Assembly (NCBI GenBank): GCA_905178155.1
Contig: CAJINV010000024.1
Span: 352,715 to 416,714 of the forward strand
Length of the DNA stretch: 64,000 bases
Source of the DNA: Amoebophrya sp. A120
Taxonomy: Eukaryota; Protista; Dinoflagellata
Direction of reading: 5' to 3'
Shown: piece by piece, positions 28,575 through 58,030 of the stretch
Position numbering within the stretch: position 1 is the stretch's first letter
Layout of the letters: the number at the start of each line of letters is the position of its first letter
The notes under the pieces: generated by a model
What the model was told of the DNA's origin: nothing
The model's database searches: none
The model's input: only the letters and a program-made list of their open reading frames with translations
Program-made: the position numbers and the translations under genes

Positions 28575-29145
28575 CTCCGGCAGACTTCCGATCCTATGTG
28601 AACGGCGACGTGGGTTGGTAGGATCGATTGTGAGACAGTTCTAGAAGGCCTGTCGGCGAGGCGCTGCAAAGAAAGTAACGATACACATACACTTCACCTC
28701 TATCGACGAATAGTTGGTCGGTGTGACTTGAAAGCAGGCCTGTGCCACGACAAACTTGATCTGCAAACAAATGATGGCACGAACCAACTCTCATCAAACG
28801 TTTTTTCGTAAATGGATGCTAGACAAAGTTGATTTGTCACAAAGTTGCCCGAGGGTATTCTCGATGCAGCGAGTTTAGGGCTTTCGCAGTTGGGGAAATC
28901 AACTCGGAGCACAAAACGCATGACAAACTTGATTTGTCACAAAGTTGCCCGACGAGGGTATTCTCGACGCAGCGAGTTTGGGGCTTTCGCACTTGGAGAA
29001 ATCCACTCGGAGGCCTCTCTTCTTGAGGTGGCCTTCTCTGACTTGCTTTGTCGCCCTACTTTCCCATGGGAGTCTGAGCACGAAGTAGGTAAGAATTTTC
29101 TTGCTAATTTAGCGAGAAGAATTTGGGCTGCATTTTCATACAAGA

Positions 29146-34410: not shown

Positions 34411-34411
34411 N

Positions 34412-37400
34412 ATTTTTCTGCTTTGAGGCAAGCCAAACACAGTGCGAGGGACTGCGCTTTCATTTTGTGGGAAACACGGCCTACACTTGATTTGTCACAA
34501 TTTTGCACGAGGGTATTCTGGACTGGAGACTTTCCTACGGCCTAAACTTGATTTGTCACAATTTCGCGCCAGGGTATTCTGGACTATAGACTTTTCTACG
34601 GCCTAATCTTGATTTGTCACACTTTTGCACGAGGGTATTCTGGACTAGAGACTTTTCTACGGCCTAATCTTGATTTGGCACAATTTTGCGCGAAGGTATT
34701 CTGGACCAGAGACTTTTCGGCCAAACTTGGCCCGTGCCATACTCCTGGGAAGGACCCCTTTTTGGGTCATTTTTTTGCCCAGATTCCGCACTGAATCACG
34801 GGCATTTGCAAGCTTTTCATGGCAAATTGGGTGAAGATGGAAGCTTCTCTAAATGACTTCTGTTTCTCTCTCCGAAAAATATGCATGACAAACTTGATTT
34901 GTGACCAAGTTGCCCAGCGGTATTCTGGGCGATGCCATTTTTGGCTACTGCCTGGCAATGCCAGCTTTGGGCCAGCAGCGCTTTCTGCTTCCAGGCAACA
35001 CAAACTTGATTTGTAACCAAGTTGCCGAATGGTATTCTGGGCGATGCGTTTTTTGGCTATTGCCAGCTTTGGGCCAGCAGCGTTTTCTGCTTCCAGGCAA
35101 CACAAACTTGATTTGTAACCAAGTTGCCCGATGGTATTCTGGGCGAAGCCTTTTTTGGCCTTTGTCAGCTTTTTTCGGGCAGATTTTTCTGCTCTGAGGC
35201 AAGCCAAACACAGTGCGAGGGACTGCGCTTTCATTTTGTGGGAAACACAGCCTACACTTGATTTGTCACAATTTTGCACGAGGGTGTTCTGGACTGGAGA
35301 CTTTCCTACGGCCTAAACTTGATTTGTCACAATTTTGCACGAGGGTATTCTAGAGTAGAGACTTTTCTACGGCCTAATCTTGATTTGTCACAATTTTGCG
35401 CGAGGGTATTCTGGAGTATAGACTTTTCTACGGCCTGATCTTGATTTGTCACAATTTTGCGCGAAGGTATTCTGGACCAGAGACTTTTCTACGGCCTAAT
35501 CTTGATTTGTCACAATTTTGCGCGAGGGTATTCTGGACTAGAGACTTTTCTACGGCCTAATCTTGATTTGTCACAATTTTGCGCGAGGGTATTCTGGACT
35601 AGAGACTTTTCTACGGCCTAATCTTGATTTGTCACAATTTTGCGCGAAGGTATTCTGGACCAGAGACTTTTCGGCCAAACTTGGCCAGTGCCACACTCCT
35701 GGGAAGGACCCCATTTTGGGTCATTTTTTTGCCCAGATTCCGCACTGGATTCCGGGCATTTGCAAGCTTTTCATGGCAAATTAGGCGCTGGAAGCTTTTC
35801 TGAATGATTTCCATCTCCGAAAAATATGCATGACAAACTTGATTTGTAACCAAGTTGCCCGATGGTATTCTGGGCAGCCCCTTTGTTGGCTCTTGCTAGC
35901 GCTGGACAGCATATTCGTCTTCGAGGCAAGGCAAACACAGCGCGCGACCGTGGGGCCTCCTCCCCACATGTAGGTCTGGCGTGAGAATACTCTGGCTTGT
36001 GCATATTGGTTTCCCGAACTCTTGTCAATTCTCAGAAATTTGCATGACAAACTTGATTTGTAACCAAGTTGCCCAACGGTATTCTGGACGATGCCATTTT
36101 TTGGCTATTGCCAGCTTTGGCCCAGCAGCTTTTTTTTCTTCCAGGCAAGACAAACTTGATTTGTCACAAAATTGCCCGACGGTATTCTCGACGCAGCGGA
36201 TTTGGGGCTTTCACAGTTGAGGAAATCAACTCGGAGCACAAAACGCATGACGAACTTGATTTGTCACAAAGTTGCCCGAGGGTATTCTCGACGAAGCGGG
36301 TTGGGGGCTTTCACAGTTGGAGAAATCCACTCGGAGGCCTCTCTTCTTGAGGTGGCCTTCTCTGACTTGCTTTCCAAACTTGATTTGTCACAAAGTTGCC
36401 CGGCGGTATTCTCCACGAAGCGAGTTGAGGGCCTTCGCAGTTGGAGAAATCAACTTGGAGGCCTCTCTTTTTGAGATGGCTTGCTCTGCCTTGCGTTGTC
36501 GCCCCAATTCCGAATGTGAATCTGGCCAGTAGCAAGCTTGTCGCTCTAATTTTAGCTAGAAGACTTCGAGCTACATTTTTGCACGCGGCGCATGACAAAC
36601 TTGATTTGTCACAAAGTTGCCCGGCGGTATTCTCCACGAAGCGAGTTGAGGGCCTTCGCAGTTGGAGAAATCAACGTGGAGGCCTCTCTTTTTGAGATGG
36701 CCTCCTCTGCCTTGCGTTGTCGCCCCAATTCCCAATGGGAATCTGGCCAGTAGCAAGCTTGTCGCTCTAATTTTTGGTAGAAGGCTTTGCGCTACATTTT
36801 TGCACGCGGCGCATGACAAACTTGATTTGTCACAAAGTTGCCCCACGGTATTCTCGAGTTGAGGGCTTTCGCAGTTGGAGAAGTCAGCTTGTAGGCCTCT
36901 CTTTTTGAGATGGCCTCCTCTGCCTTGCGTTGTCGCCCCAATTCCCAATGGGAATCTGGCCAGTAGCAAGCTTGTCGCTCTAATTAATTTTAGGCAGAAG
37001 ACTTTGAGCTACATTTTTGCACGCGCCGCATGACAAACTTGATTTGTCACAAAGTTGCCCGACGGTATTCTCCACGAGGCGGATTTGGGGCTTTCGCAGT
37101 TGGAAGCGTTTTTTCAGCTTTTTCAGGTTTGGGGAACACTTCTCGGGGCAGACATGAAGCCCCTTACGCACATGTTGTTGCTCTAGGCTGGGAGTAGTTT
37201 GCCTTTCAAATTACAGCCTCTCGAATTCGTGTTAATCTTTCCCAAACTTGCATGACAGACTTGATTTGTAACCAAGTTGCCCAACGGTATTCTGGGCGAT
37301 GCCTCTTTTGGCTAACAAACTTGATTTGTAACCAAGTTGCCCGAGGGTATTCTGGGCCACGTCGTTGGACAGCATTTTCTTCTTCGAGGCGAGGCAAACA

Positions 37401-38122: not shown

Positions 38123-39468
38123 TCAACCTCAGCGCTGTTTTAGCTTTTTCCGGCTTTGAGTACTAATGTTCAATCCAGCAGGAGCTTTCAAGATCTTTCG
38201 CTGTAGTTGATTTTTTTAAGCACGAAAAAACAAATTCGGTCGCAAGAAAAAAATCGCTAGTGTTTCAGACTCAATCACTATGGTATACTTCTCCCAAAAA
38301 ATAAAAGCCCATAGAATTGTCCCAAAATAATCTAAGCTTGTGACGCCTGCACGCATAATCGCCAAATCGCAAAGTCACTTGATCACCCCATAAGGACTGC
38401 AACTTGAGTTTTTTTCTTCAGAAAAAGTTTGCAAAACGAAAAACCATCGGTCGCATCGGCTGTTGTTTCTTTTTTTTTTTGAATGCTTATACAGTATTTG
38501 TTACAGTTCGTCACCCTGGCATCTTCGGTCGTTTCATTAATTGTTTTTCCACCAGCAAACGAGAGGGCGTAGTTGTCGTCGCTCCAAAAATTGTAGCCAC
38601 AATGCAGCCCATAAGTACAAAATAGGAGCAGGGACGATGGAATAGTTCTTTGTTACACGAGTGAATAAAATGAAAACCGCCGAGTGAACAAGGAGATGAA
38701 AGAACTTTTTGCACAAAAAGCGTCCACCTTCCCGTCGTAGGATTCGAATCGAAAGTAGTGGTCTTCGGGATTTTTATTCGGTTTGATTTGTTTTGTTCCG
38801 TAGGGTCGTCCTCGTCGCAAAGTCAACTCAAGAATCACAGCCCCTTTCAACACTTGCGAGAGGAACAGAGAGAAACGACAACAAAACTACGAAACGATAA
38901 TTTCTTGTCCCCACGAAATCGAATTCGACGTATTGCCCCACGGCAGGTCTTCACAGTCGCCACGAAGCATCATTTCAAGGCATCAGTTTATCTATCGCAA
39001 TAGTTTACTTTACACTAGTTACCGTTTCGTCGTATTGGTTTCCGCATGGTGGTACGAAGATCTTCGAGACGACATCGATATAAATTATTCTGGCAACACA
39101 GTCCGGAAAGAAATCCAAATCAATCATCCGAAGTAGAAGAAGTGGTGCCTAAACGTTTTGTTCGTGACTTGATCTTCACCACTTCCCCAACAGTTCGTTG
39201 CAACAGTACAAGAAGAACATTTATTCGTCGTTGATTATTCTTTACCCACAGAGGACAATACAAATGGAGACCGGCGTGGGCCATCAACATCGATCACTTC
39301 GGCTATTGTTACAGCTGGTGACGCGCTGCTAGTCCTAGTACACTGACACGACCCATTAATTTCCTGCTCTTCATCAGCGACCGCCAGTACACGACCACTT
39401 GAACAATTGAAGAGATACACGACCCCGTCGAACACCCGTGTCCCGAGCTATATCAGCCCCGTTGCGTC

Positions 39469-42400
39469 ATGGTGCTCGACAACAGTCTATCCTGAGTAAA
39501 AACGTGTCTACCCAGTGGTCAAGTTGGTAATTCTGCAACACAAATCTCCAACTTTGGGGAGGTGTGCATGACAAAGACAAGGAGAGGCGCATTGTAAAGA
39601 CGCCTTTTTGTGCTTTGTACAGCATTACGAATCTTCCCAGAACACGACTACAAGCACAAATTCCTCTCATGCGGATGCGCATGACAAATGTTGTTCTGTT
39701 CGTGTTGATGCAAAATTTTGCATGACAACTCCGGGGTGGAGACCACGTTTTTGCGCGGCATACATTCCTTCAGATTGTTCGCGGCTCTTCAGGCTGGACC
39801 AAAAAGCCGTGCTCGTCCGGGAAGACGACTTCGAAGCGTATTTTGGGCCACTCCTGCGATGGGCGGCGCAACAAGCAGAACGGATGAAAAACTTGGATGC
39901 CAACAATGGAGCAGAAGCGGTTTATTGTGCTGCCACCTCAGGAGGTAGTAGTAGCTCAGCAGCAGGAGCATCGTCTACTTCATCTTCTTCCACCCCCGCC
40001 GTACAAGTAGCATCAGCTTCCGCAGAACCGGTAACAGTACCTTTGCTATGAACTACAAAAGTATCGTACTCATGTAAATGCATTACAAATTTTCTCAGCA
40101 TGAGAAATAGAATCTGTAATGCTGATTTGCCTTGACAAGGAAATTTGCAATCCAAGACCTGCATTAATACGATTACGATACTTGTTTTGCACAGCATACT
40201 TGCCACCCTTCCGGGATTTCAACGAGTTTTTCCTACTGAACACCGAACGTGAGGTATCAAAATGAAAAATCCCCCCTCCCCATACTAAAAAGGGATACTC
40301 CTGAAAATTTGTGATGCTGATTTGTGGCCACAAATCGTCTCTGTATTGCATGAAGGCAAGAACTCCAGAGACTCCGCTGCGTTGTGCAGGCAATTTGTAA
40401 TGCTGTAGCGCCTACAGAGGACGTGCCTGCCTTGCTAGGTGCCTACAGCAAAACGCCCCTCCTCAGGCTGCGCGCCTGGCTGCAGTCCTCTACTGCAACA
40501 CAAAGCCGATTTGTGTAGACAAATCCCGCATCACAGATTTCCATTTTGATATGGGGCGGGGGGATTTTTCATTTTGATATGAGAAGGAACGGCGCGCGCT
40601 GGCGCAGCAGCGACGGGAAGCGGCGGAGCAGGAGAAAAAGCGGCTGCTGGGATCCGAGGACGAGAGCGAGGGCGACGAGCCCTTCTTTCCCGTAGTACGA
40701 CGACCGCCGACGAGGAAGATTGAAACAAAACGTCGACCTCGACCGTTGTTGCACCCCGGCGGAGGTGAGGAGAATCATGAGGACAAGGTCGAACGTCTGC
40801 GGAGGGAGCAGGAGGAGAGAGCGGCTCGAGATAAGGCAATGTGGGATCCTGACAACCCGCTGAATGAGATGGCTTATCTGCAGTCGCACCAAGCGCTCGT
40901 TTTCCACAAGAGCGCCGTTGTGACGATCGGGCCAGACGAGGAGGCCCAGGACTTGGCCGTTGCCGCCATGGATGCGCAGAAGGGCCTGGTGGTGAAAAAT
41001 CTGGCTTCGGGTTTGGGTCTGTCCGTTCTGATGTCGCAGACGGAAACGCAGGCGAAGAAAGAACAGCAGACCGAAGAGGACGAGGACCTACACCCGGTCG
41101 TGAAGACCTTGATACAAGAAGCGATAAGGAGCAACCCGCGCGTCATCGTTGACGAATTTGCAGCTTGGCACGCATCAATGCGGAGGGAATCTGGGGAGTC
41201 GGAGCTGTGTGCGGTGAATGATTTCTTTTCTCCTGGGGATTTTGCAAAAATGTCGGACCGTGAGTACGCTGCAGTGGCGCTGCAGCGGGCTCAGGACGTG
41301 AAAACGTTCTGTGACCAGGTGGAAGCGTATACCACACTATACGAGCGGACGCGGACCGAAGCGGACGACAGGCGCAGGGAGGAAAAAGATCAGTTGAATG
41401 ACCACTATCTTAATCAACATCAGTTGGGGCTAGGCCGCGATCCTTTTCACAAAACGAAAAGTGGTCCTTCGCCGCTGACGAAGCTCGCGGCACAAACTGT
41501 GGAGCAGCTCCCGCCGGGATTCATACCCTTTGTCGAGTTCGAGCTGATGCGGCTGGACCAGGGCCCGGTCGTGCCCGGCGTCGACAAGCAATCCGCCGAG
41601 TGCTTGGTGGAGACCTTGCTCCTGTCACCCGACGAGGAGCACTTCGAGACGGGCCGTCACCGGGCCCAGGTCCGCGCGACGTTTGAAGGCGTCTTGAGCC
41701 GACGCGCGATGACCCAGCTCGGGAAGTTTAAAATCAGTGCCGGAGAGCAATTTTTGCAGCACCTCGGCCTTCCACACAATCTCCTAGAACACCGCCTGTC
41801 GCCCTTTGTCGAGTCGGAGCGGAACGATTACGGAGTACCACGGAAAGACAAGCAGGCGCAAATGTGGGTACGTCCGTCTAGGGTGATCGCAGAAAGCGGA
41901 CTATCCTACGAAGACGATCAACTGTCGATCACATCAACGCCTTTCCCATCCGTCTGGACGGCCGAGCGGACGGCGCACGAGCAGTGGTGGCTTTCCAACT
42001 TTTCACCGGCAACCGAGGACGAGCATTTCTACGGCTTTCGAAAGCAGCACAAACTCTACAAGGATTGGAAAATCGCAAATTCACCAGACCCAGAGGAAGG
42101 AAAAGTATCAAACGACCGAGCCAGCTGTCTGCCTTCCGTCGAAGGGTCGGCGCACGATACGCTCTCGTTCGCCTTTTCAACGAGCATTTCCGGCGGAGAA
42201 GAGGGCATCCTGAACATCGGCATGTTCAAGCGGGAGCGGGAACCACCAGGCACGGCAAAATCTTCGCGTGCGACCAGTTACAGGGATTTTTCATGCTCCA
42301 CCAAGCGGGGGCGGGACACTAAGCGGTATGAGCGACTTTGGCACGACCCGCTTGATTTTTTCTTCCTGCCGAACGCCATCGACACGCGTATTGACCGAGA

Positions 42401-44257
42401 GAAGATATGTCCCGAGGATCCGTCGCGACAACGCTGGGGGGTATGGGTCAGGGCTCGACACTACACCGAGGAATCCGAATCACCATCGCCAGTATTTGGA
42501 ATGTCATGGAGAAGACGTGGCCCAAGCGAGCACGTGAAGGATGATCCCACACGGACACGGACCGAAGAGTTCTACTTCGCGACGGAGGAAGAAGCAGATG
42601 CGTTCGTGGCCGAGTTCGAGATCTGCTGCAGAATCGCACGCGAGTGCCGATTATCAAATGCAAAAATGTCTGGGTCTGGATCTGGAAGGTTGGAACTTGT
42701 CATGCTAAATCTGAATCAGGCAAAAAACTGTGTTGCGTGATTGCCAAAAGTTGTGCACTTTTGACCTGATCGAGAGGCAGTCTCTCATGCAGGATAGCCA
42801 TTGGAAAGGTTTCGCAGAATCTGTCTTGCTATGTCCTGCATACCAGACCTCATGGGTTATGGAAAACCTGCATGACAAGTCTGGTAATCTTCCAGACCCA
42901 GACACTTTTGCAATCCATACCGATACGCGAAGCCGGTGGTAGAGATGATGAGCATGTACGAGCACGTCAAGAACAAAACCGTATCGTACGAAAAAAGTGT
43001 TTCACTGTAAGGGAAAACAAAGCTAAAAATCCATTATTTTGTTGCATGTGTAGCATGACAAACACTTCTTCGCAGATGCATTTTCTGCATTACAAGTTTA
43101 CAGTGAAGCAATTTTTTCTTGCGATGAACCGGAGAGGACAACTACTGTTCCTGGTTTACCCACGTCTACCCCGACAAAGCTGGTGAGAAAAAGTGCAGCC
43201 GCATCTCCTTCATTCTCAACGAAGAAGGATTACCACTGCTCCTATCCACTGCGAATATCATTTCCGGGTCTGGAAACCTGTGATGCTGATGCATCGGGGG
43301 ATGGGGATAATTGCAACACTTATATTTGGAGCCACGAAGCATGACAACTTTATTATTTTCATATAACGCTCTCTGAACCTGAAGCGACGTAGCACGCATG
43401 ACAAGTATGTGTTTTTGTATCACAGATGAAAGTTTGCTTTTGCCTGTCACGGAGAAGAACAGAGATTCTGCTGGCCGCATGCCCGACACGCAATACAAAC
43501 TGAGCTTTAATATTCTTTCCAGACCCAGACATATTTGCAATGCATAGTGCCCCACCGAGACCGAGGAGCTCGACCAAGACCAGGAAGCCGCAGAGGAGGA
43601 GCCCAGCAGCGAAAAGCCGCTCGCTACTCCCGACCTCAACACTGCTACGTGGGCCGAGGTCGCACGCGTCGTCTTTGCGCACCGCCTGAAGCAGCAGGGG
43701 CGATTATCAAGAAGAAAAGTCCCCCCTCCCCATACCAAAACGGAGATCTGTGATGCAGATTTGTGGTCACAAGTCAGCTTTGTCATGCTAGGAGGAAAGA
43801 CGTGCGGAGTGTAGTGCTGGCTGGCGTGGGAAAGCCTCGCGCCTTCAGCATGACAGAGAGCAACTGGAAGTGGGAAACAGCATGACAGATTGCCTGCAAA
43901 CGAGGCCACAAATGCGGCTCTTGGCCTTCTGGCATTACAAGTCGATTTGTGTACTCAAATACAGCATCACAAATTTCGTTTTCGATATGGTGGGGGGGCT
44001 TTTCCCTTTTGATAGCGATCGGAATCCTGGTGTCCTTCCGTGCGAGACCCGATCCGGTTTTATTGCGTGTTTGCCGAGGATATGCATTGCAAATATGTCT
44101 GGGTCTGGTAGTAGGGTGTAACTTGTCATGCTACATCTGGATCGTGGCAAAATTTGTGTTGCAAATGACAAACCTAGCACTCTTCCAGACCGAGACATTT
44201 TTGCATTTGATAAAGTATGAGAAGGAAGAAGGTGATGGTGAGGAAGTGCAACAATGA
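39469..44257 (+). CDS. Large hypothetical protein (gene A), 9 exons and 8 introner introns; paralog of 59195-63242
   Basis: Exons 39469-39486, 39767-40045, 40203-40253, 40584-42650, 42924-42980, 43131-43241, 43551-43703, 44019-44079 and 44217-44257 form one open frame; FRDFNEFFLLNT, TWAEVARVVFAHRLKQQ and RDPIRFYCVFA match the paralog; 5' start uncertain. Confidence 0.85.
39488..39762. mobile_element. Introner
   Basis: TIR tatcctgagtaaaaacgtg / cacgtttttgcgcggcata; direct repeat cagtc/cattc. Confidence 0.85.
40047..40198. mobile_element. Introner (short)
   Basis: TIR tatgaactacaaaagtatcgta / tacgatacttgttttgcacagcata; direct repeat tttgc/cttgc. Confidence 0.8.
40255..40579. mobile_element. 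Introner (cccccctccccata family)
   Basis: TIR tatcaaaatgaaaaatcccccc / ggggggatttttcattttgata; direct repeat tgagg/tgaga. Confidence 0.95.
42652..42919. mobile_element. Introner
   Basis: TIR tatcaaatgcaaaaatgtctgggtctgga; perfect direct repeat ccgat. Confidence 0.95.
42982..43126. mobile_element. Introner (short)
   Basis: TIR tatcgtacgaaaaaagtgtttcactgtaa / ttacagtgaagcaattttttcttgcgatg; perfect direct repeat aaccg. Confidence 0.9.
43243..43546. mobile_element. Introner
   Basis: TIR tatccactgcgaatat...gggtctggaaa / tttccagacccagacatatttgcaatgcata; direct repeat gctcc/gtgcc. Confidence 0.85.
43705..44014. mobile_element. Introner (same family as 40255)
   Basis: TIR tatcaagaagaaaagtcccccc / gggggggcttttcccttttgata; perfect direct repeat gcgat. 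Confidence 0.95.
44081..44212. mobile_element. Introner (short, internally deleted)
   Basis: TIR tatgcattgcaaatatgtctgggtctgg / ccagaccgagacatttttgcatttgata. Confidence 0.9.
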
Positions 44258-45559
44258 ACCAGTTGGAAGATGAACTCAACTTGACGTGGCGAGGAAAAAG
44301 TAACAAAATATAAATGTGCAAACCCAAATCTTTTCTATTCAAAGAAGAAAACAGCAAAAGTTATGTCGAAGACTATGATTATGAGTCTATATGTCGTGTA
44401 ATAAAATTTCGTCGGAAGCTAGTTGAATACGAATACAATTTCGACGAGAGCCAAAAACTTATATACTGTATGAAATTTGTGTTTGATGGTGACAGGAAGT
44501 AGAGCGCTGTACCAAGATACGATAAATCGGCTCATAAGTATTCCTTCGAGTGATCTTGACCGGCCTTCGTCGACCCTCGAACACACGCACCTCAATCAAA
44601 GAGCAAGGATTTAAGCTTTTTGATACAGCGCTATGCTTGATGGAAGCGGCATGTGTTTCTGGGGAGTGGAGGAATGGGCCAGCCACAGTTCTTTCACTAG
44701 CTTTGTGTTCGTGAAAAGAAGTCTATGTTTCGCTTTTTTCTTCGATCGATTGAAGACGAGTGCAAGCACTTCCCAAGGAAGTACTCAAGTAACCAGATCC
44801 ACTTTTTCGACAGAGATGTTCGCTCGGATCGATTTTTTGTTGTTGTTTTTTCCTGTTTCGTCTTTTTCTCGATGTTAGATAGCAAGGAGCTGTAAGTGAG
44901 CATTCTTCTCGACCTTGAATCTTCATCAATATGAAAATGACAACTCTCCAACCCAAATGACAGTGATAGCGAGTTTTTTTTTTGTGTCCCTTTAGGGGGT
45001 AAAGAAAGCAAGCTATTATCGTAATACGTACCACTCCTGTGCCTTCATTTTCCTCTTGTGTCCAAAAATAATTTGTCCACCTTTGTACTCATAAACCACC
45101 ACGAAACTTTTATTCCTCAAGCTCAAGCACCAACTTCGTGAAGAATTTGCGATACACTGTACTGCAGAAACGCATCCACTCCTCAAGCTTTCCTTTACTG
45201 CTGTGTACCAAACTATGTTTCTCACGTTATCTAGTCTGCAAAACAAACCCTGAACAAATAATAGCCTTGCATCACTATCTACGTCATTCAAATACACTTC
45301 TATTGATACAAGGAGGTTGAGTTTGAGAAGGAGGACTCGATTACTTGTCTTTTCTTGAAGAAGTTTCGTCACTACATTACGTACGATTTTAGTTTTACAT
45401 TGATAAATATCTCTAAATTCATCAATACGGCGTTGCTCATCTGTGATATCTACCAATTTGGTGTTTATATGGTGCTATTATTATTTCAATTCTACTTCTG
45501 GTAGTCGTAGTCCACAAATAACCGCTATTTCCTCATCAAATCCACGTTCCTCATCGGCA

Positions 45560-48500
45560 ATGGCTGCTGCTCTCCCTCCGGCTGGGGGCAAGAAAGCTTC
45601 TGCCCGAACGATGGGCCAGATTTCCACGGAATTTCACAAGCGTGAAAGCGAATTTACCACTTTAGAGGGCACAAGATTCTGTCCCTGGGTCGGAAAAATA
45701 ATCATCGACGACAAGAAGAAGAAGCCAGAGGAACTCACCATCCTGGCTCGGGGGGACGCCAAGCTCGCCGTGGAACACCTGTGCAGCGACGGCGCATTCG
45801 GCAAGGTTGTCCGCCTGTGCATGAACCCCGATTCCGACCGTAACAGGAAAGTGCCCGCGGCCCGAAAGAAAAATCTAGCAGTGAAGGTGATCTCCAAGTG
45901 GAACGTATCCATTGAGTGTGTGTCCGGGTCTCGAAACTGGACTTGCACCCCTTCGATGTCTTGTAGCTTTTGCACTACAATCGAATGTTGCTGAACTGCA
46001 TAAAGAAGGCGCATTGCATGGTACCATTAAGTGGCGTGCGCAACCTCCCTGATGGGTGTATACCTATCTTCCCGCATGAGAGGTGGTCACCACCACTCTC
46101 TGCTGGTGAAAAAAGGGTGGGCAGCTGCTCTCGGTACGCTTGCAATGCAGACCTCAGTTGTGATGTACAAGTAGTGACGCGTTGCCAATAACAAGACAAG
46201 TCGCAGATGACCCAGACACATATGCAATGCATAGGCCGAACAGGACAAGGTCGAACAGTTGCGGCAGATGCGCGAGGCGGCGATCAACCTGCAGTTCGAA
46301 AACGGCAAGGAGGGCATTACTCCATGCTTCGGTGTCTTGTTCAGCGTGATTTTATGCAGTGCAAAGGCGTCTGGGTCTGGAAGGGAACAGATAAGCACAA
46401 TTTGTAATGCTGTTTTTCCCTCTGGCGCAGGGGAAGTGTCTGGCATGCACACAGAGCACCTCAATTTCTGTTCCTCATGCTCTTCTTGCATGAGAACTGC
46501 CGCTGCCGAATGGCGCAAACTGTGTGCTCCTTGCTGACCACTACTTACGCAAGGCAAGTTTCTCTCTCTTTCAAAATCAGTCTGAGACGTTTGCATGATC
46601 CTTCGAGCCCCAGGTACATTTGCAATGCATATCATAGCAACATTCTCATGTTCATCATGCCCCAGGCGATGATGAGCTGGGTGAAATTATCCCGAGGAAA
46701 AATGTCCCCATCCCACATTTGTGATGCAAGTCTGGATGCCCAAGAGTTCGGCATGCTCGTATTTGCAGAAGCGGAACACTTTGTGTACGCGGCTTCTACA
46801 GCCGTGCGCGAGTTCTACGCAAAGTGTCCAAATTTGATTTGTTATGCGAACTTTACCAGGGGTTCGAATCTCGATTTGTCGAGGAGCTTGCCCACCTTGA
46901 CTATGGGATGGTTACGTTTTTCCTCAGGATGCCGCTTTGACGCGAAGAAGCACACCCAGGCGTTCTGCGCGTTTACGGTCCACGTTTTGAATGGCTACAG
47001 GTACTTATTTTTTTACGACTTGATGGTGGGTGTTTCTGAGCGCGATGTTTGACGTGCGTTGTAGCATAATGGAATTATGGAAACTGGAGCAAAACGGCGC
47101 TTCATTCCGCAAGAACGACACGAGGATCTACAAACAAACTTTATTTTTTAATCGCAAGCAGGTACTACACGTCGCAAGGGCTTCAGCACCGTGACATCAA
47201 GGTATCATAGTCAAAACTGCCCCACATAACCCATATGGATGGTTGGTCTGTTTTTAGTACGGTTGGTCTGTGAATGTTAAGTAGGTGGAAGCAGGATTCG
47301 TTGACATTTCTCGTGATAAAGATTATCTTCAACAACAAGTTTTATTGATCTTCCTACTCTCTTCTACACGACCTGTGGGACCTGGTAGAGATTTTTTGGA
47401 TAACAAAAGTTCTTGCTTTTGCTGCAGAACGAGTTCGAGGCATCAGTGTGCATACTATAGCAGAAGACAAGTCGCATATGAGGCGGATGGCAGTTTTGAA
47501 TGTGATAAATTCCCAGCAATATGTTGCTTCGGAGTGTATCGGACCTCTCTGAGCTGCCACGGCACTACGTTCCGGTTGATCACTATCAGAAAAAATCCGG
47601 ACCATCGCAAGTACTACCGATGCAGGTTTTGCATTTAAAGATCGGTTCTGGGGCGTCACAGGTATATACAAATGTCGCAGAAACAGAAACACAATCGCCA
47701 TTGGAAACAAGGCTGACTGTGATGTGCCTCTACGCCCGAGAACACGTTTTGTCTTGCAAAAACGGATAAGTACTCAAAAGTGGTTGCGATGATGTTTTTT
47801 TCTTGCATACTGAGGAGTTTTACGGGTTCGTCGCATGCTATTGTACAGTAACTGGTCGGCTCTCATCGATATTCGACAACACTTGCAGCGTCGCGTGTAG
47901 TCATGTTGAAAGAGAGGTATAAGTGGCGTGAAGCGTAAGCCTGTGCATCAGTTTGCATGATTGAAACGGCACTTTCGCAGCAGGTGCACCCACACAGTAA
48001 TTTCCCTATCACTGTCGAAACAGAAAAATACGGCCGGCTGTTCTCCCTGCATACGCGCATCTGCGACTGGGGTTCGGCGAAGCACTTAACCGAGGAGACG
48101 GGCGAAAGTGGACAGCATAGTCCGCGCGGCAGGGTGGGCATTAGGAAGTGGTGAACTTTACCTGCCACACCAGCAGAGGCCTCATTGAAGCCGGGCAAAA
48201 GTAGTGTGAATCTATGCAGACAACTCTGTTGATTCTGATTTTTTTTTTCAAAATTTCTTCGTACAACTTTTTCTTTCCTTCTGATTTCGGATTTTTTTCA
48301 TTTCCTTTTTCCAAAAGAAGCTAGATGCGTCATGTTGTATCTTTTTTGCGGGATGAAAAGTCTTGAACCTCCTATCTGTTATGCATGCCGACGTCTTTAT
48401 AATTTTTTTGCATGCTCTTGTTTGCTATCGTGCAGGCAAAGTTTACACGTTCATAGAAGCCGACAACTACGCCTCCGTGGATTTTCGGATTCATTTCGAC

Positions 48501-51500
48501 GAAGAGGTGGAGTTATCTTCGGATGGCGAGAAGGAGGAAGAAGACGCAGATATCCTATGTCAAAACGTCCCCATCCCATGGCTCTCATGCAAATCTGCAT
48601 GCTCGAAGGATTTCTCATGCGGAGCGTAATCAGAGGCATTTTCTAGTCGTATTTTAATTTTGGGATTTGTCATGGTCCAATCGGCATACTATGTTCCAAA
48701 TTTGTGATGCAACTGAACTAGCGAACAAGCAGGATGACATTTACTAATGCGAACTTGTAATGCGCAGCAAGGAGTAGGAAATAAGCTGGGTCTTTTGTCT
48801 AGCGGATTTCCCCTCTTGACTCTGGGGTGGGGACATTTTTGCTGAGGATAGAAGAAGAGGAAGAAGTAGACCCCGATTTGCCGGAGGCCGTATCATCTGC
48901 AAGTATGTCTGGGTTCCCTGAAAGTAAGATTGTAAAGTTGTAATGCTGATCATTTTGCACCAGAAGGGGGAAAATCTGTCTTGCATAGTCAGCACGAGAT
49001 GCGCACTTTTTGTCTCCTGGACAGGGCGTTTCTTATTCAGGTCAAGCCTGAAGAAGCCTCCGCACAACGCGATCCGCTCTCAGTGCATTTCAGACCTTCA
49101 GGCAGACCCAAAAACAGCATGACAAATTAGCTCTGCATTCATCTTCCAGACCCACACCAGACGTTTGCATTTGATACGCGGGGGAGCAGATGGAGTACAA
49201 CCCCGTCCTGCTGGGTGACGCGCCGATTCCGGACGATGCCTGCGCAGTGTGCTTGGAAAAAGGAAGCGACTTGTTCAGCTTCGGACTGATGTTCCGCGAA
49301 ATGTATCTCGCTATGATCGAAGAACAATCCTTCCGCGCCGCAGGGTTCCTGGTGCGTTTGCAACTCCATCCGAAAATTTTCACCCCGGGGTGTGGGTGCG
49401 GCCGCAAAAGCACACGGGCAGGAACCCGGCGGCGTGGAAATTTTTCGAAAGAATATTTCGAATCAACATGGAGTCGAAGTATAACGAGGCGCACGCTTAC
49501 ATACTCCACCAGCAGGGCATCGACCTGAACAATCTCAAAATCCGCTCGCAAGAGGAATACAAGATGTTCATGTACCAGTTCTGGCACTTTCACTGCAGCT
49601 TGTTGGATCCCAAGGGCGTGCCGGAAGAACACAAGGACTACATCTACATGGATGTTCTGCGCAAATTCGGGCCAGGCAACAAGGGACTGGAACCAAAATT
49701 GAAAAAGGGAATCGAAGGTACACTATAAAGTTGTTTTTGCTGTAGTTCTTGAATGGAGTCAGATCACAGGTGGAGTTTGCAAAAATGCCTTGTAGAAGGA
49801 GGTCTTGGTGTGTGTCGTGTATTGTGCTGTGGTTCAGGACGCTGGAGTTTCTGGCGATTTTTGTGTTTGGGTGTTTACGATAAAAGATCATGGAATCGAA
49901 AATAAATGCCAATACAGCGTTCCTCAAAGAATCCAAGGCGGCCAGTGCGAAAAAAGATGGTCCCGACTTCCACCGCCTCTGCGTGCAGTTGACCAAGTTA
50001 TCCTGCGTAAAAAGCGTCCTTGTCAACTACACAGAGAAGTCGTATGTTATTGGTTCTTGCATGCCCCTCCGAATAACCGGAACGTGTGTCATGCAACACT
50101 CATGAAAATCATATTAATTGCGACGTTTTTTGGACATTTGTCATGCAAAGTTTGGGATCAGAACTAGGTGAAAACCCGAACTCCGTGTAGCCGCATGTAT
50201 GACCAGAAGCTGTGTGGGACGTCCTTGATGGCAAATTTGCCCGACTGGCCTCGGCTCCAAATAGCGGTCATCCCGTGCATCTCTATACAGCTTCTCGACT
50301 GAAGGACGCTGCACAATCATGAATCAAAGGCGACATGGACGTTTTTAGGCAGGATAGTAATGGGACCCGGCCGTGTATGCAAAGAAAAAAGTGTTACAGC
50401 TACATATTGTGTTGCAAAACATACAAGACAGGCGATCTCTGCCATGCGCAAAGTGCTTGCGAGTCTCCTTTTGTGTGTGTTTTGCCTTATGATCTCTGCA
50501 TTGCAAGTCCTCTCCGTCATGCGAGGCAAATTTGTGATGCTGAATTCACTACAAATGTGTAACTCTAAATGTAACACTTTTTTCGTTGGATATCGTACGG
50601 CACAGCGGATTGACCGATGATTTCCTCCGCGAATGCCGCATTTTATCGAAACAGCGTTTCGAGGAAGCTGCCTCATCGGGGTCCGAGTTGATGTTCGACT
50701 TGAAGGCGCCGCTGCCAGTGCCGGAATCCATGGCGCCCAGGATTCAGGACAACGTCAATGACTTGCTCGGCCCGCTGCTAGAGGACGCCGATGAGGACTG
50801 CGATAGGGTGGAGGCCCGCGAAGACCTCAAGGGAAAGGAAACCGAGAAACGTCAGCTGTTAGAGGAAATCGAGGAGAAGGTCAAGGAAGAGACGAGCACA
50901 AAGATCGCCAAGAACCTCCATATAATGCTGTACAACGAGAGGCTATCCCAATGAAAGAGCTAGTTCCCCTGACACAAACCGAGACTTGTGATGGGAGATG
51001 TGTGTGCGCGAATCATCTTCTCTGGCGAGCAGACAGCAGGATGCTTCTGTGATGATTTCTTTGTGTAACAAGTTCAATTTGTCATGCACAGCGTGGCAGG
51101 AAAAGGAAAACCTTCGCCGGTCATACTGACTGACGAGATACGTTAGCTTTTCTGACTTCACGCGAGAAGAAGTTGATTGGTGTACAATAGAAATTGATGG
51201 GTACTTCTACCATCAATTTTGCACACAGATGACGCCCGGAGAATTTCAGTTTTTTCAGTTTGATAGACACCGCTCTTGGACGACGCAGGCAATTTTACGG
51301 GCGAGGTGAAGCCGAGGAAGGCACCCGGCTACGTGGCCGAGATGCAGCGCAAGCACGCCGCTTTGGCCCCCGAGTTCTGGGGCACCGCGTACACCAGCAC
51401 GGGTGATGTGGTATCACATCATCTGACAAAGCTAGTTTACTTTTTCAATGACTTCATATGCTCACATCTATACGTAGAAATACATTCATTTCTGGCGTGG

Positions 51501-53461
51501 AACATTACATTCATTTCTGGTTGTGCTAGACGGATATTTTTTCTACAAATCACATAGCGAAGAAGATAAGGAGGTATTTTTTGTTTCCCAGGTGGAGACG
51601 ATGACAGAAGAACAGCGTGCGGCGTTCAAGGACAAACGACCTATCAAAATGCGAGAGGCTTCCCACACCATTTCTCATCTCAAAGTCAATCCGCATCACC
51701 TGTTCTGCATTGAAAATTGCACCCACCGATACGAAGAGAAATTTGCCCACGTGAAGATCAATCCACGTATCATTTTGTGATGCTTCCCCGCAGAAGATGC
51801 TGCTTCGTTTCATGTCATGTTCGATTATGGTGCAGAGGGTTCTTGCAGCAGGATAAATTCGGATCCAAATTTCCTCAATCCCAACGAGATCGGCGAGAAC
51901 GGCCGAGAACGTAGTCCGAGGCGCAATGCAGGTAAATTCTGTTGCGTTCGCTGCAGACCAGAAACCGAACATTGCTTTTAAATTTCGTGAGCTGATGGAT
52001 TTATTTTCACGTTGCGACTTGTGATTGTGCCACAAATCTGGCGTTCTTCGTGCATGAAGACAGTATACGAAAAGTTGACAAATGATCCAAAATCTGCATA
52101 CCACAGGCTTAAACAACAACCAGTTGAACCTGCTCGCTGATGTCGATGATATCGACGATGTCGACGCTCTGGCGCAAAATGTCGACGCCGACACAACCGT
52201 CCTGATCACCGTGAACGGCAACAGGAAGATATCCAATACAAAAATGCGTGGCGGTGCAATTTTTTGGATAAGATTCACTTGCTTGCGGCATGACAAACCG
52301 GCTCGAGAAGGGAATTCAACTACTATGCCCACCATTGCTAAGTTGTCTTTTCTGTTTCTTTGGCAGGGCAGGAGATGAAATGGTCTTGCGTGACAGGCTC
52401 TGTCGCCACAAATTTGCACTGAGCATTTTTTTTTTTTGGATAGCGTACGATCCAGGATGTGCTCAACGACTACGAACCGAAACACGGCTTTCCCGGCAAC
52501 GGCAAAAGAGCACGGTATCAAGTGCAAAAATGTCTGGGTCTGGAAGGTTGCAACTTGTGATGCTGTCTTTGGAAGGTAAAAACAATCTGTATTGCATGAC
52601 CAGCCAGGCGAGTTCAGTTTGTGCTACACGGAGTGGGCGTTTCTCATGCGGAATACGCATCAGAAGGCCCGTTAAAAATCTATGATGCTAGGTCATGCAT
52701 TACAGCCATCATGGGTTATGCAAGATATGCATGACAGACTTGGCAATCGTCCAGACCCAGACATTTTTGCACTTGATACACGGACGGCGGAGACCAAAGA
52801 GCACTGGGACGTGATACGGCTGCGTGTCGTGCCGACGCCGGATGGCGCAGGAGCCGCCGATCCGACGGGTAACATCGAGCGCAACCGTATCCTATGTAAA
52901 AACGCCCCCACCCCAAGGTCAAGATGGAAAATCTGCTAGTCTTTCACGCTTCGGCCCAGGGCATCACTGTATTTAGCTATTATGGCCGCATCTAAAATTG
53001 ATATTGAACATCAGACTCCATCAAAGCATGACAAATTCCAATGCGCCTTCTTTGGAAAGTGTCGCTTATCTTCAGGAAACTGCGCATGAGACACATCTTC
53101 AGGGTGAATATGGAAAATTGCATGATAAACTTGTCGTGGTAGGAACATTTTTACTGAGGATTGACCGAAAGAACTGGACGAAGCACTGGTTGCCAAACAA
53201 CCCGCTGTTAGTTTACGGGACTCTCAAGCGTTACACCAGTGACTGTATACATGAATGATATTGTAATTGTGCAAGACTACCTCTACCAAAATAATCTGAT
53301 GATGAGTGAAAGGGCTAGGCTTGCGAGTTGCTGTTGCAGGCTTGGCAGTGATTCTATTGCTACCTAGCGCATCCTCGAGCGCACATCGCACGATGTACAT
53401 TGAGTGGTCGGGTGGTTTCACGGTCGCATTGATTCTGTCTGCATCGCAAAAAACTATGTAG
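45560..53461 (+). CDS. Divergent Ser/Thr protein kinase with long C-terminal extension; at least 12 introner introns plus several GT-AG introns
   Basis: Spliced motifs in order: DGAFGKV, LAVKVI, MREAAINL, IMPQAMMS, HRDIK|PSNMLL, RICDWGSAK, SDLFSFGLMFREM, LTK|WDPAV|RHS. 3' end and a few internal junctions unresolved. Confidence 0.88.
45906..46233. mobile_element. Introner
   Basis: TIR tatccattgagtgtgtgtccgggtc / gacccagacacatatgcaatgcata; direct repeat gaacg/ggccg. Confidence 0.85.
46353..46631. mobile_element. Introner
   Basis: TIR tatgcagtgcaaa / tttgcaatgcata; direct repeat decayed. Confidence 0.8.
46688..46931. mobile_element. Introner (stop-free, in frame)
   Basis: TIR tatcccgaggaaaaatgt..catccc / gggatggttacgtttttcctcaggatg; removal restores kinase spacing between hinge and helix E. 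Confidence 0.8.
47203..47507. mobile_element. Introner splitting the kinase catalytic loop
   Basis: TIR tatcatagtcaaaactgcc / ggcagttttgaatgtgata; lies between the HRDIK and PSN codons. Confidence 0.9.
48551..48850. mobile_element. Introner
   Basis: TIR tatcctatgtcaaaacgtccccatccc / ggggtggggacatttttgctgaggata; direct repeat gcaga/gaaga. Confidence 0.9.
48891..49176. mobile_element. Introner
   Basis: TIR tatcatctgcaagtatgtctgg / ccagacgtttgcatttgata; direct repeat ggccg/cgcgg. Confidence 0.85.
49999..50356. mobile_element. Introner
   Basis: TIR tatcctgcgtaaaaagcgtcc / ggacgtttttaggcaggata. Confidence 0.9.
50376..50592. mobile_element. Introner (same family as 3607)
   Basis: TIR tatgcaaagaaaaaagtgttaca / tgtaacacttttttcgttggata; direct repeat ccgtg/tcgta. 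Confidence 0.9.
50944..51265. mobile_element. Introner (degenerate TIR)
   Basis: tatcccaatgaaag / tttttcagtttgata; direct repeat gaggc/gacac; frame restored. Confidence 0.7.
52230..52442. mobile_element. Introner
   Basis: TIR tatccaatacaaaaatgc...gtgcaattt / aaatttgcactgagcatttttttttttggata. Confidence 0.8.
52516..52778. mobile_element. Introner, inverted relative to 15108-15387
   Basis: Perfect TIR tatcaagtgcaaaaatgtctgggtctgga; perfect direct repeat cacgg. Confidence 0.97.
52888..53162. mobile_element. Introner
   Basis: TIR tatcctatgtaaaaacg / catttttactgaggatt; direct repeat aaccg/gaccg. Confidence 0.85.
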
Positions 53462-54237
53462 CAGCGACCAATGTAACGGTTGAGAATGCCATATGTTGAA
53501 CAAGTTCGGCGGAGCGCAGCGAAAACTGCAGCATGCAAGGAACAGCAAAGTGCTATACCCCCGGGCGCGCCCGAATGAGGATGTCGTGATGATGGAAGAA
53601 TAGGCTCGGTTATGACTACTTGTGACAAGAAGAAGATGACTTTATTCGCTGGTGGACAAAATATTTGAAATAAAGGAAAGTATGTAGTTTACTATGAAAA
53701 GGCAAAGGTTGGCTTCGGTTTTTGTATGCAAAGGCTTCGTTCCCGAAGCCCCTGGAACGAAGCACAAACTCATCAGCTTCAAAATTTTTTGTGGTGTTTC
53801 TGTTTACTGTTAAGTAAAATAATTCGTTGTCGCCCCTTCTTTCTATTGTACGCACCTACCATTATTTGTCTTGCTGACATAGGATATCTTGTTTTCGATT
53901 TATATGCGATATTTATGTACATTTGCACGAGATCTAAGAAAAAATGGATTTATCTACGCTTAGTACGTCACGAACTAGGTCTTTCCTACGCAAATTGTAC
54001 TGTATGGGAACCGTTCACAAGATGACTCATCCGTTAGAGAAATGGAAACGGACGAGTAATGCGTTAGACTATTCAGCAGCAACAGTAAACCGGAGAAACA
54101 GCAAGGCGGGCGCTCTTCTAGGTTTGTGAAAGGTGTAGCGCCGCAAAGTATACATCAAGCAGCAAACCGAGTTGTCGGGCTTTTGACTTCACAGGGGCCT
54201 ACTGGATATTCAGGTGGGTCATTGGCCGTTTCAACAT

Positions 54238-55581
54238 GGTCGATGCCCGGTCGGGTCGGGTCCATGGCCGGTCGGGTCGGGTCTCTGGCCGGTCGGGTCG
54301 GGTCCATGGCCGGTCGGGTCGGGTCCATGGCCGGTCGGGTCGGGTCCATGGCCGGTCGGGTCGGGTCCATGGCCGGTCGGGTCGGGTCCATGGCCGGTCG
54401 GGTCGGGTCCATGGCCGGTCGGGTCGGGTCCATGGCCGGTCGGGTCGGGTCCATGGCCGGTCGGGTCGGGTCCATGGCCGGTCGGGTCGGGTCCATGGCC
54501 GGTCGGGTCGGGTCCATGGCCGGTCGGGTCGGGTCCATGGCCGGTCGGGTCGGGTCCATGGCCGGTCGGGTCGGGTCCATGGCCGGTCGGGTCGGGTCCA
54601 TGGCCGGTCGGGTCGGGTCCATGGCCGGTCGGGTCGGGTCCATGGCCGGTCGGGTCGGGTCCATGGCCGGTCGGGTCGGGTCCATGGCCGGTCGGGTCGG
54701 GTCCATGGCCGGTCGGGTCGGGTCCATGGCCGGTCGGGTCGGGTCCATGGCCGGTCGGGTCGGGTCCATGGCCGGTCGGGTCGGGTCCATGGCCGGTCGG
54801 GTCGGGTCCATGGCCGGTCGGGTCGGGTCCATGGCCGGTCGGGTCGGGTCCATGGCCGGTCGGGTCGGGTCCATGGCCGGTCGGGTCGGGTCCATGGCCG
54901 GTCGGGTCGGGTCCATGGCCGGTCGGGTCGGGTCCATGGCCGGTCGGGTCGGGTCCATGGCCGGTCGGGTCGGGTCCATGGCCGGTCGGGTCGGGTCCAT
55001 GGCCGGTCGGGTCGGGTCCATGGCCGGTCGGGTCGGGTCCATGGCCGGTCGGGTCGGGTCCATGGCCGGTCGGGTCGGGTCCATGGCCGGTCGGGTCGGG
55101 TCCATGGCCGGTCGGGTCGGGTCCATGGCCGGTCGGGTCGGGTCCATGGCCGGTCGGGTCGGGTCCATGGCCGGTCGGGTCGGGTCCATGGCCGGTCGGG
55201 TCGGGTCCATGGCCGGTCGGGTCGGGTCCCTGGCCGGTCGGGTCGGGTCCATGGCCGGTCGGGTCGGGTCTCTGGCCGGTCGGGTCGGGTCCATGGCCGG
55301 TCGGGTCGGGTCTCTGGCCGGTCGAGTCGGGTCTCTGGCCGGTCGGGCCGGGTCCCTCCCTGGCCGGTCGGGTCGGGTCCCTGGCCGGTCGGGTCGGGCC
55401 GATGGCCGGTCGGGTCGGGTCCACGCATGGCCGGTCGGGTTGGGTCCATGGCCGGTCGGGTCGGGTCTCTGGCCGGTCGGGTCGGGTCCATGGCCGGTCG
55501 GGTCGGGTCTCTGGCCGGTCGGGTCGGGTCTCTGGCCGGTCGGGTCGGGTCGATGGCCGGTCGGGTCGGGTCGATGCCCGG
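54238..55581. repeat. 21-bp G-rich minisatellite GGTCGGGTCGGGTCCATGGCC, ~63 copies
   Basis: Seen directly; homogeneous centre, variant units at the edges. Confidence 0.98.
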
Positions 55582-57175
55582 GCCGCATACGCCTGTAGTT
55601 TATTTTTTCTTTCGCCCGCGACCGCGATCCGACTACTATTGTCACGTCTGATTGTAGGCGAAGCAAGTTCCTCTTGGTGCCGCAAGCTGAACATCTATCA
55701 TAGATTTTTCGCGGAATTGTATCAAGAAACCAAGTAGCAGTTTCTTGGTAGAGGCACTACGAGCAGCCTGCTACAAGCGAAAGAAGATATCTGCGTGGCC
55801 TCGGTTTCTATGTGCTACGTGAACCTGTCTTGCTGGACCAGAAACCAAAAGCAGCCTTCTAAGACGCGGCAATTAGTCACGCGCTTCTTTCAATACATAA
55901 TTGCGTTAGTTTAATTATATATCTCTAGAGCGTTTTTTCTTATTGGCGAGCCGTATTCGTGGCAGAAGATGAAGAGCAGTTTCGTATTTTCTTTTCGTTT
56001 ATTTTGCGAGTCTGTATTGTGTACAGCTGCAGCAAGGAGGACGAAATAAAGTAAGTAGCAAGGCGAAATCTGCACAGTTCGTCCCGGAAAAATAGACAAA
56101 TCAAAAGCAAGCAGAAAGAGCCAAACTCTTTGTACACAACACTTTGAAATACTAAAATGCGATCCCGATCGCGATCTCGATGTATCACCTCCGCCGTTGA
56201 AGCCGGCGCATGTGATGCTACATCACAGCCTAGACGAGGCACGACCGGTGTTCTAGCGCTTATCGACTGCTGCCTTCTTTGTTACCCGGCTGTGAGGATC
56301 GATATTAACGACAATGTTTTTCAAAGTGTGCCACTGTCTTCTGTCCAGCAGAAATAAAGATCAAGAAGCTGTGACTCCTGAGGTGGGCCAAAGACTGAAT
56401 ATCAGCCACCTAATATTTTCTATGTTGTCTGGCGCTGGCGGACTCGTCAGAGATGTGCAGCTTCCTGCTGCAAGTATGATTCAACGAAACGCGCCGGACT
56501 AATGCATGCGCACAAACGGTCGCAGTATTGCTAGTGTCCCATCCACACTTGCAGTACTTAACTTTCCCTTGCAGCAGCAGGCGTCTTGTTGCTCTCGCTA
56601 GAGAGGTAACCATGACATGCAAAGATATATTTTCATGTTCGCTTTTAGAATCACATCCGATATGATGTCGCGCAAATTGATATAGTAGTGCCTACTTCTT
56701 GGCGTGTTCATGGTCCGTCGCAAACTCGGAGAGAAGTTTTGTCTCGCTCGATCGAAAACGAGAAAAAGCAATCCACGAGACGCACTTTTTCGACGTGGTC
56801 GCCCGCGCATTCGGATCAGTTTTTTTCTTCGCTTCGTTTTTTCGTTTTCTTCCGGTCTTCCCCTATCGAAATCGAAAGCATTTGAAGTGGAAGCCGCAGT
56901 GCTCAAAGGCGCATTGATTTCATGATGATGACCATGAAAAACCTGCAACCCACATGACAGGGATGGTGATTTTTTTATTGCGGCACAATAGGGCCAACGA
57001 CTCTTATTCGAAGCACCCGGGTAAGAAATAAATAGAAATTACATAGTAAGTTGTAGCAATAATACCTAGAAGTTGCCTGCTCTTCCGTGGCATCAACTAG
57101 TAGCGGCACAACCACACAACTCTTAGTACTGTGCCATCCTTCAGTAGAATCCTGTGCAGGGGTGCTTCGGTGCGG

Positions 57176-58030
57176 TTAGGGCGGAAAAGTCGGCAAATGC
57201 CATCACTTTTGCAAGCGCACGTTTTGGGAGGGTAAAAAAACTTTTTTTGTTGGGGGCGCAACATCTTGGAAGTCGACACGCCTCGCGTGTCACTTGATCT
57301 TTTCCGCAGGAAACATGATGGCTGAGCTTTGGAAATGCCGCAACACCAAGACCAGAAGCAGGCCACAGCGCCCTCGCCCTGTGCGCTGTCATTCAGATGG
57401 CCGGACGTTGTGTCGTGGGCCCGCTCTCCGATCAGGGGCCGGGCCGCCTCCGTGACCGGGGCTCGACGAGGCCCATCGCCTGGAAAAGAAGGCCCGGCAG
57501 GGGGGGTGGTCAGGGGGGTGCATTTTTGCCCCCTTCGGACACCCCTTCCGGGTACCCCTTCCGGGTAGCTTTTCGGTAGCCTACGCCGACCCCCAAATCC
57601 CCATTGGAAACTGCTGATTTGGAATGGCCCAAAATGGTAGCCCAACGGCAGCCCAAGCGGACCCCCTTACCCCCCCCCTTCGACACCCCCCCGGACGCAC
57701 CCGACTGGCGGCGCGTCCGCATTTTCAACATCCGGCCGCAGAGGGAAGATGAGAAAATGTCTGGGCGCGTACGGAATTGGATGTGGGAGAGGGGGCGCGG
57801 CTTCTCGCGCCGGAGGGCCGCAGGCCTGTGCAACTTCAGCAAAGTGCTGCGGTTCTATTGGAAAAAGGGGAGGGCCGGATGGCGGACCGTGACAACGAAC
57901 AGTGGCGCCAGCGGCTACATGGCCAACAGGAAAAAGAGCAGTGTCGATACCCCCAACAGCCACAATTTTTTTGCCCCCCCAAAATGCGCGCTCGCGAAAA
58001 TGATGGCATTTGCCGATTTTTCCGCCCTAA
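57176..58030. mobile_element. 855-bp non-autonomous DNA transposon with ~90-bp TIRs and 5-bp TSD
   Basis: ttagggcggaaaagtcggcaaatgccatca... versus ...tgatggcatttgccgatttttccgccctaa; tgcgg on both sides (57171-57175 and 58031-58035). Confidence 0.92.

Follow-up and report, generated by a model that had tools for sequence, protein, structure and literature searches.

Introner elements and non-canonical introns of Amoebophrya sp. A120 were described by Farhat et al. 2021 (PMC7789003), the available text of which puts non-canonical introns at over 60% of the A120 total, gives their border positions as variable (1–5 nt) or unknown, leaves the mode of splicing open and records U1 small nuclear RNA (snRNA) as undetected. 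In Euglena, nonconventional introns follow the pattern N3-CDG ... CH'G-N5-6 with a purine next, tested by knock-in; the available part of that report (Nomura et al. 2025, PMC12501133) proposes a MITE origin, gives the machinery as unknown and makes no mention of Amoebophrya. Here we compare with these systems an intron of A120 that interrupts a predicted kinase gene, together with its neighbours in the window (the whole 64-kb stretch of DNA analysed).

A decayed element in the catalytic loop of a predicted kinase

The host gene (45560–53603, plus strand) comprises 23 coding segments and is predicted to encode a divergent protein kinase of 817 aa; its exon 1 is 100% identical to P0001, an 817-aa public protein labelled Amoebophrya sp. 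A120. P0001 matches Pfam PF00069 (E 1.5e-10, 41.4 bits against a curated cutoff of 31.7), its catalytic loop aligns with HRDLKPSN of ERK2, and both HRDxKxxN and DFG-like motifs are present, the DFG equivalent being a DWG at 48065–48073 (+), two exons further on, as placed by the sequence, the exon map and P0001. The gene has 22 introns, 18 of inverted-repeat type and 4 of GT–AG type. With the reading frame open for 817 aa and the kinase motifs in order, a kinase pseudogene, which the original prediction had named as an alternative, is unlikely.

The focal intron splits the catalytic loop. HRDIK, encoded by CAC CGT GAC ATC AAG at 47187–47201 (+), closes the upstream exon (47162–47201, +); the DNA then continues as GTATCATAG...GTGATAAATT and resumes coding with CCC AGC AAT ATG TTG CTT, the PSNMLL that opens the downstream exon (47512–47582, +). 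The exons were placed by the contig joint and exon lengths and, for the upstream one, also by the sequence. Between them lies a non-canonical intron of 310 nt (47202–47511, +; GT...TT; 41% GC) in which stops close all three frames. Contigs of X1 (depth 25.6) and X4 (depth 28.6) join 47201 to 47512, skipping 310 nt with GT..TT ends and no letters shared between the two borders, and the spliced frame is open across the joint. The lengths of the eight exons add up to 460 nt, exactly the space given by the record coordinates, which leaves no room for inserted letters at the contig joints. These contigs bear out the junction forecast from sequence, ATCAAG|CCCAGC, in which removal of 47202–47511 gives HRDIK|PSNMLL, and with it the forecast GT...TT ends. 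The other junction that had been offered, AAGG|CCAGC in a 5+0 register, would read HRDIKASN and differs from that of the contigs. As had also been stated, removing the element plus 2 nt adds an extra Ile (HRDIKIPSN); the element plus 5 nt gives HRDIKPSN. The spacing of the kinase motif is kept, but it does not single out this junction: K-P, K-A and N-P all preserve it, and the contigs, not the motif alone, fix the register. P0001 already reads HRDIKPSNMLL, and both the junction and the element type are already public, in the gene model (P0001) and in PMC7789003; taken alone, the focal junction adds nothing to the public gene model.

The element inside the intron has transposon-like ends. The left copy of a 5-bp target-site duplication, CAAGG (47198–47202, +), leaves four nucleotides in the mRNA, and its last nucleotide is intron position +1. 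It is followed by the left terminal inverted repeat TATCATAGTCAAAACTGCC (47203–47221, +), in which TATCATAGTCAAAA provides the TAT start with a later A-run; 17 of its 19 positions are complementary to the right terminal inverted repeat (47489–47507, +), which has ATA at its end, and the two arms are paired in the MFE and centroid folds. The right copy of the duplication has decayed to AATTC (47508–47512, +), of which four nucleotides are intronic and the last is the first of the next exon. The two flanks agree at 1 of 5 positions, in keeping with the claim that they are no longer a repeat. As a whole, the region has no greater predicted folding stability than shuffled sequences (z −0.86); the arms still pair in both predicted folds. 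The focal element has no similar copy within the 64-kb window, and the depth of X5 over it equals the baseline of 43.5 (at 97% likeness). Measured against the A120 introner elements (IEs), the intron has contig-supported non-GT–AG ends and an inverted repeat of the TAT type in the length range of 8–20 nt, and lacks the border direct repeat of 3–5 nt (1/5 here); it therefore counts as an IE-type intron in decay and not as a textbook IE. Another kinase element, unrelated to the focal one and also decayed, shares its ending ATA-AATT|C (47508–47512 and 51856–51860), which is probably chance.

At its 5′ end the intron looks conventional: AAG|GTATCA resembles the canonical donor GTG|GTATCA in the same kinase gene, the T of the GT being the first base of the terminal inverted repeat. 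Despite this donor-like 5′ end, the contigs end the intron at TT and ignore a CAG acceptor-like site (47514–47516, +) 5 nt beyond the real 3′ end; of the U2-type border signals, the 5′ GT is present and the AG acceptor is not. Use of that CAG would shift the frame into a stop, and an AG product, if made, could be degraded unseen. Canonical GT...AG readings of the intron were rejected, as they give stops.

The transcript evidence consists of assembled contigs from one study, in which minor isoforms are hidden and which may not be independent of the public annotation; the labelling of X1, X3 and X4 as RNA in the records is a guess. Four runs were compared with 43500–53500, and of the 15 joints listed among 33, two joins between repeat copies were dropped and 13 belong to the kinase contig. 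Raw RNA runs contribute one read (X8) and two reads (X9) at the locus, all partial. X1 and X3 have depth 0 at 47392, inside the focal intron, and no cover at 38500–38806, where X5 has cover, and GT–AG introns are also skipped in contigs of X1 and X4; the contigs therefore behave as cDNA. The genomic state is given by an X5 DNA contig that spans 44184–47700 with no difference and no gap, leaving the intron unbroken, and by X7, which crosses the 3′ border of the focal intron unspliced. Among the 15 of 77 joints listed, which do not include the focal joint, three kinase joints have zero depth in both X5 and X7; 12 of the 15 are repeat-to-repeat joins of X5, and the junctions of the upstream gene were taken from contig coordinates. 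At 42491–44332, the summed X5 DNA contig depth over young elements climbs to as much as 67,411, compared with about 43 elsewhere. Large recent families would fit this pattern, although summed depth does not give a copy number.

One register at neighbouring elements

The more important point, which the original prediction had not seen, is that the same spacing recurs at neighbouring elements. In the register that we term 1+4, the intron starts 1 nt before TAT and ends 4 nt after ATA. With all offsets mapped, 1+4 fits all 13 of the kinase introns that are non-canonical and verified by contigs (ten seen as direct joints, two flanking a micro-exon and one taken from a contig-coordinate table), whereas 0+5 fits 7, 2+3 fits 6 and the mirror register 4+1 is compatible with only 1. 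Fixed spacers of one register thus separate the paired terminal motif from the cuts in all 13. Under a random register with fixed length, the chance of 13/13 is 7e-7, or about 4e-6 allowing for six registers. Before sliding was resolved, the aligner output ran from 0+5 to 4+1; sliding within the duplication accounts for an apparent border spread of 0–5. Junctions that cannot slide are free of this ambiguity, and the three such contig junctions in the kinase gene (47203, 48142 and 49312) are all 1+4, as are 4 of 4 among the 31 elements assembled in the window. The micro-exon, at 50362–50371, lies between inverted-repeat introns in the X1 and X4 contigs and measures 10 nt as aligned and 13 nt at 1+4; another short exon, of 21 nt, lies at about 60141–60161.

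Two flanking genes extended the comparison. The upstream gene (39469–44560, +) holds eight elements of the same kind and has 945 codons open when spliced at 1+4, and its eight junctions were predicted in advance as an out-of-sample test. For six of the eight, the contigs confirmed both sides as element+5, which is compatible with 1+4, with two exons obtained by subtracting record lengths; three of these six junctions have perfect repeats and are uninformative on register. Element 40255 rules out 0+5 from one side, and 40047 was seen on one side only. This contig test alone is weak (P about 0.07); combined with the annotation of the downstream gene, P is about 0.001. That gene, P0002 (58908–63239, +; 989 aa), contains five elements and served as an annotation-level test, in which the element at 62404–62556 permits 1+4 alone. 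Beyond the elements examined through contigs, ten are in agreement with P0001 and P0002 at the level of the public proteins, that at 62404–62556 among them. Altogether, 0 of 31 elements, drawn from several repeat families, exclude 1+4. P0002 has no precomputed Pfam domain; it and the upstream open reading frame are alike by eye in places, and the two may be paralogues flanking the kinase.

The asymmetry of the register has a direction. An identical 28-nt repeat end lies 5′ in element 44081 and 3′ in element 43243, and both elements exclude the mirror register, so that the asymmetry follows the transcript and not the element. The register evidence covers three genes, all on the plus strand of one window; a search of 1–39000 found no convincing minus-strand gene.

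Comparison of the elements separated what is kept from what decays. In young elements such as 42652, 42982, 43705, 52516 and 61525, a perfect 5-bp duplication lies directly outside TAT...ATA. Over all 31 elements the two copies match at 1 position in seven elements, 2 in five, 3 in nine, 4 in five and 5 in five, and in the kinase elements the identity of the duplication is 28/65 against 76/78 for TAT/ATA. The focal site is no lone exception, since 4 of the 13 contig-verified kinase elements retain only 1 of 5 duplicated bases. Across the 31 elements (39488–62556), T at +2, A at +3, A at −7 and T at −6 are invariant, and each of the four bases is found at intron +1 and at the positions from −4 to −1; the 18 elements beyond the initial 13 were located by TAT/ATA scan or by eye, which inflates the conservation of the motif. 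Conservation is asymmetric, on small numbers, since 3 of 31 elements depart from the motif at each of the mirror positions, +4 and −5; this may reflect sequence-specific reading, with the A at −7 a possible branch nucleotide. Exon position +1 follows no purine rule (A 10, C 9, G 8, T 4).

Kinase elements 47584, 47839 and 49312 have degenerate stems, with end duplexes of −4.5 to −5.3 kcal/mol against a background mean of −7.5; the ungapped stem finder missed these 3 of the 13 and so allowed no register common to all, whereas mapping of the motif placed them. Because stems are weak at some elements, the TA/AT sequence may matter as much as pairing. Stem energy and repeat decay showed no correlation over the elements (rho −0.19, p 0.30). 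A bulge-helix-bulge intron was considered and rejected, the best 4-bp flank helix reaching 45/124 pairs, a value attained by 114 of 1000 shuffles. No Rfam family matched at gathering score in 45500–54000, and no group I or II self-splicing intron was found there by that measure.

Other repeats in the window were also recorded. Element 3607–3812 (3602–3817) has ACTGT on both sides with one extra base on the left, where strict 1+4 would not restore the target, and no open frame crosses it. The well-formed elements at 19022–19280 and 28276–28574 have no open plus-strand frame and no clear coding signal nearby, and are possibly non-coding insertions. Tandem arrays occupy 29041–34500 (99-nt unit, 53 copies listed) and 54091–55700 (21-nt unit, 60 listed), most copies being 99% alike, and an intergenic 81-nt inverted repeat that is not of the TAT...ATA type lies at 57176–58030 (84% complementary, arms 693 nt apart).

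The 1+4 spacing rule appears to be new. No fixed Amoebophrya register is stated in the available parts of PMC7789003, PMC12501133, PMC12130899, PMC9860276, PMC11453091, PMC12005148, PMC11282704 or PMC8240250, in a search that covered few subscription papers; Fig. 3, S21 and S23 of PMC7789003 may show a modal position.

How the elements may be removed

With a probability of about 0.78, we read the focal intron as an old A120 transposon-derived intron with 1+4 ends that is likely cut from pre-mRNA by a machine measuring from the base of a predicted hairpin, and not from GT–AG signals or a direct repeat. This reading builds on the contig junction, the unspliced DNA, the single register of the elements examined and the free bases at +1 and −4 to −1; the direct repeat is dispensable for exact removal. 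A DNA transposon would have inserted with a 5-bp duplication, and as 1+4 = 5, splicing would have restored the original reading frame at once; the five duplicated bases, then intronic, would have drifted while the TA/AT core was kept. The least certain step is the catalyst, which may be a dedicated structure-reading system apart from GT–AG recognition, as proposed for Euglena, and may yield a non-lariat product. Since both terminal bases are free to vary, we favour such a separate system, at about even odds. A wider proposal is more tentative, and we lean slightly against it: A120 would possess a second, spliceosome-independent splicing code, N|TAT...ATA|NNNN, in which a machine that reads hairpins would measure out 1 and 4 nt, in step with the 5-bp duplication that the transposons make, so that insertion in either orientation would create a perfect intron at birth. 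That code would have arisen independently of the 3+5 code of Euglena, and it would explain the borders of tens of thousands of introns reported as signal-less.

The same ruler could instead be applied by a U2-type spliceosome so modified that U1 and 3′-site recognition give way to the hairpin and a new protein, with a lariat as the product; this differs from the preferred reading in the last step only, and we take it seriously without favouring it. A120 keeps 83 of 89 spliceosomal proteins along with U2, U4, U5 and U6, with no U1 detected (PMC7789003, available text), and the non-canonical introns of Fritillaria are reported to be spliceosomal in the accessible part of a review (PMC11282704). 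The invariant A at −7 (31/31) could be a branch point, which is speculation. The spliceosome docks the 3′ site through a terminal G–G contact, whereas all four bases occur here at intron +1 and −1; the elements moreover work in either orientation, and the adjacent CAG is ignored. It is unlikely that the register varies genome-wide, as published, and that our three genes are unrepresentative, although the legend to Fig. S23 in the available PMC7789003 gives 1–5 nt and Euglena tolerates 5–6 nt on the 3′ side according to the part of PMC12501133 at hand. Sliding of the duplication yields exactly the 0–5 spread, and no element of the 31, from whichever repeat family, excludes 1+4.

Artefactual skips made by reverse-transcriptase template switching across hairpins (falsitrons) require a direct repeat, and no letters are shared at the focal joint (both=0) or at two others. 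They are very improbable here, even though the evidence is all of cDNA type and hairpins flanked by repeats are the classic place for such switching (PMC8240250, available part): the 817-aa frame needs 18 of 18 removals, the focal intron has stops in all frames, X1 and X3 have depth 0 within it at 47392, and the register is directional. Transposon-like ends and the guessed RNA label of X1, X3 and X4 would suit excision of the element from DNA, by transposase or somatic elimination, or contigs derived from an intron-less copy or empty allele. Such an origin is just as hard to credit, given that X5 runs unbroken over the site without differences, that neither X5 nor X7 shows any depth at three kinase joints among those listed (15 of 77), that GT–AG introns are skipped in the same contigs while X1 and X3 have no cover on 38500–38806, and that the asymmetry follows transcription. 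Least probable of all is that the direct repeat guides excision by homology. Young elements do carry perfect 5-bp repeats, but 7 of 31 elements stand at 1/5 matches, the chance level, with exact joins where tested, the kinase elements have kept TAT/ATA (76/78) and not the repeat (28/65), and the three non-slidable contig junctions contradict it. The exact contig joint, with 4 of 13 kinase elements at a 1/5 match, upholds the earlier contention that exact excision does not appear to depend on the direct repeat and that a homology-driven process is disfavoured.

The 1+4 rule weighs against both repeat-guided excision and a reverse-transcription artefact. With a fixed spacing, the borders of A120 introns that were published as signal-less become a simple code, open to genome-wide checking in data that already exist and to dissection by mutant reporters. 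Such a code permits correct annotation of the non-canonical introns of A120, and explains why this strain of the marine parasite Amoebophrya tolerates transposons in coding exons. Apparently unreported, the code contradicts the description of borders in the available text of PMC7789003.

Comparison with known introns

The introns described here share with the A120 introner elements of PMC7789003 TAT-start inverted repeats with an A-run about 10 nt in, border direct repeats of 3–5 nt, a length of a few hundred nucleotides and non-GT–AG ends; unlike the account in the available text, they show one register, a dispensable direct repeat and a spacing that follows the transcript. Among other strains, the repeats of A25 start with TTA, and AT5 and Kv have GT–AG introns only.

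Target-site duplications of hAT transposons are 8 bp long, and these transposons often begin with CAG; that would match the 3+5 of Euglena. Copia-type integrases produce duplications of 5 bp, a length that would suit an integrase-like A120 element. Such an integrase-like element in A120 is noted in the accessible part of PMC12130899.

With the spliceosomal introners of Micromonas, Aureococcus and Symbiodinium (PMC9860276 and PMC11282704, available parts), the A120 introns have in common a terminal inverted repeat, a target-site duplication and splicing that restores the original mRNA length. Those introners carry or co-opt a canonical donor and acceptor from the element or the duplication, whereas the A120 introns need no terminal dinucleotide. 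Terminal inverted repeats, target-site duplications and non-canonical ends also occur in the MITE-derived introns of Fritillaria borealis, which, as far as the available part of the review goes (PMC11282704), prefer AG-AC/AG-AT and are reported to be removed by the spliceosome; the A120 introns have no preferred ends except T at +2.

The 3+5 code of Euglena is the closest parallel. In the available text of PMC12501133, Euglena introns likewise have non-GT–AG ends and a terminal triplet that pairs and lies at set distances from the cuts, and slidable introns were likewise set aside. The A120 signature differs, being N1-TAT ... ATA-N4 with no purine rule at exon +1, in an unrelated lineage, and is read here from contigs and public proteins. 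The A120 introns thus resemble the Euglena type in their working and are not members of it.
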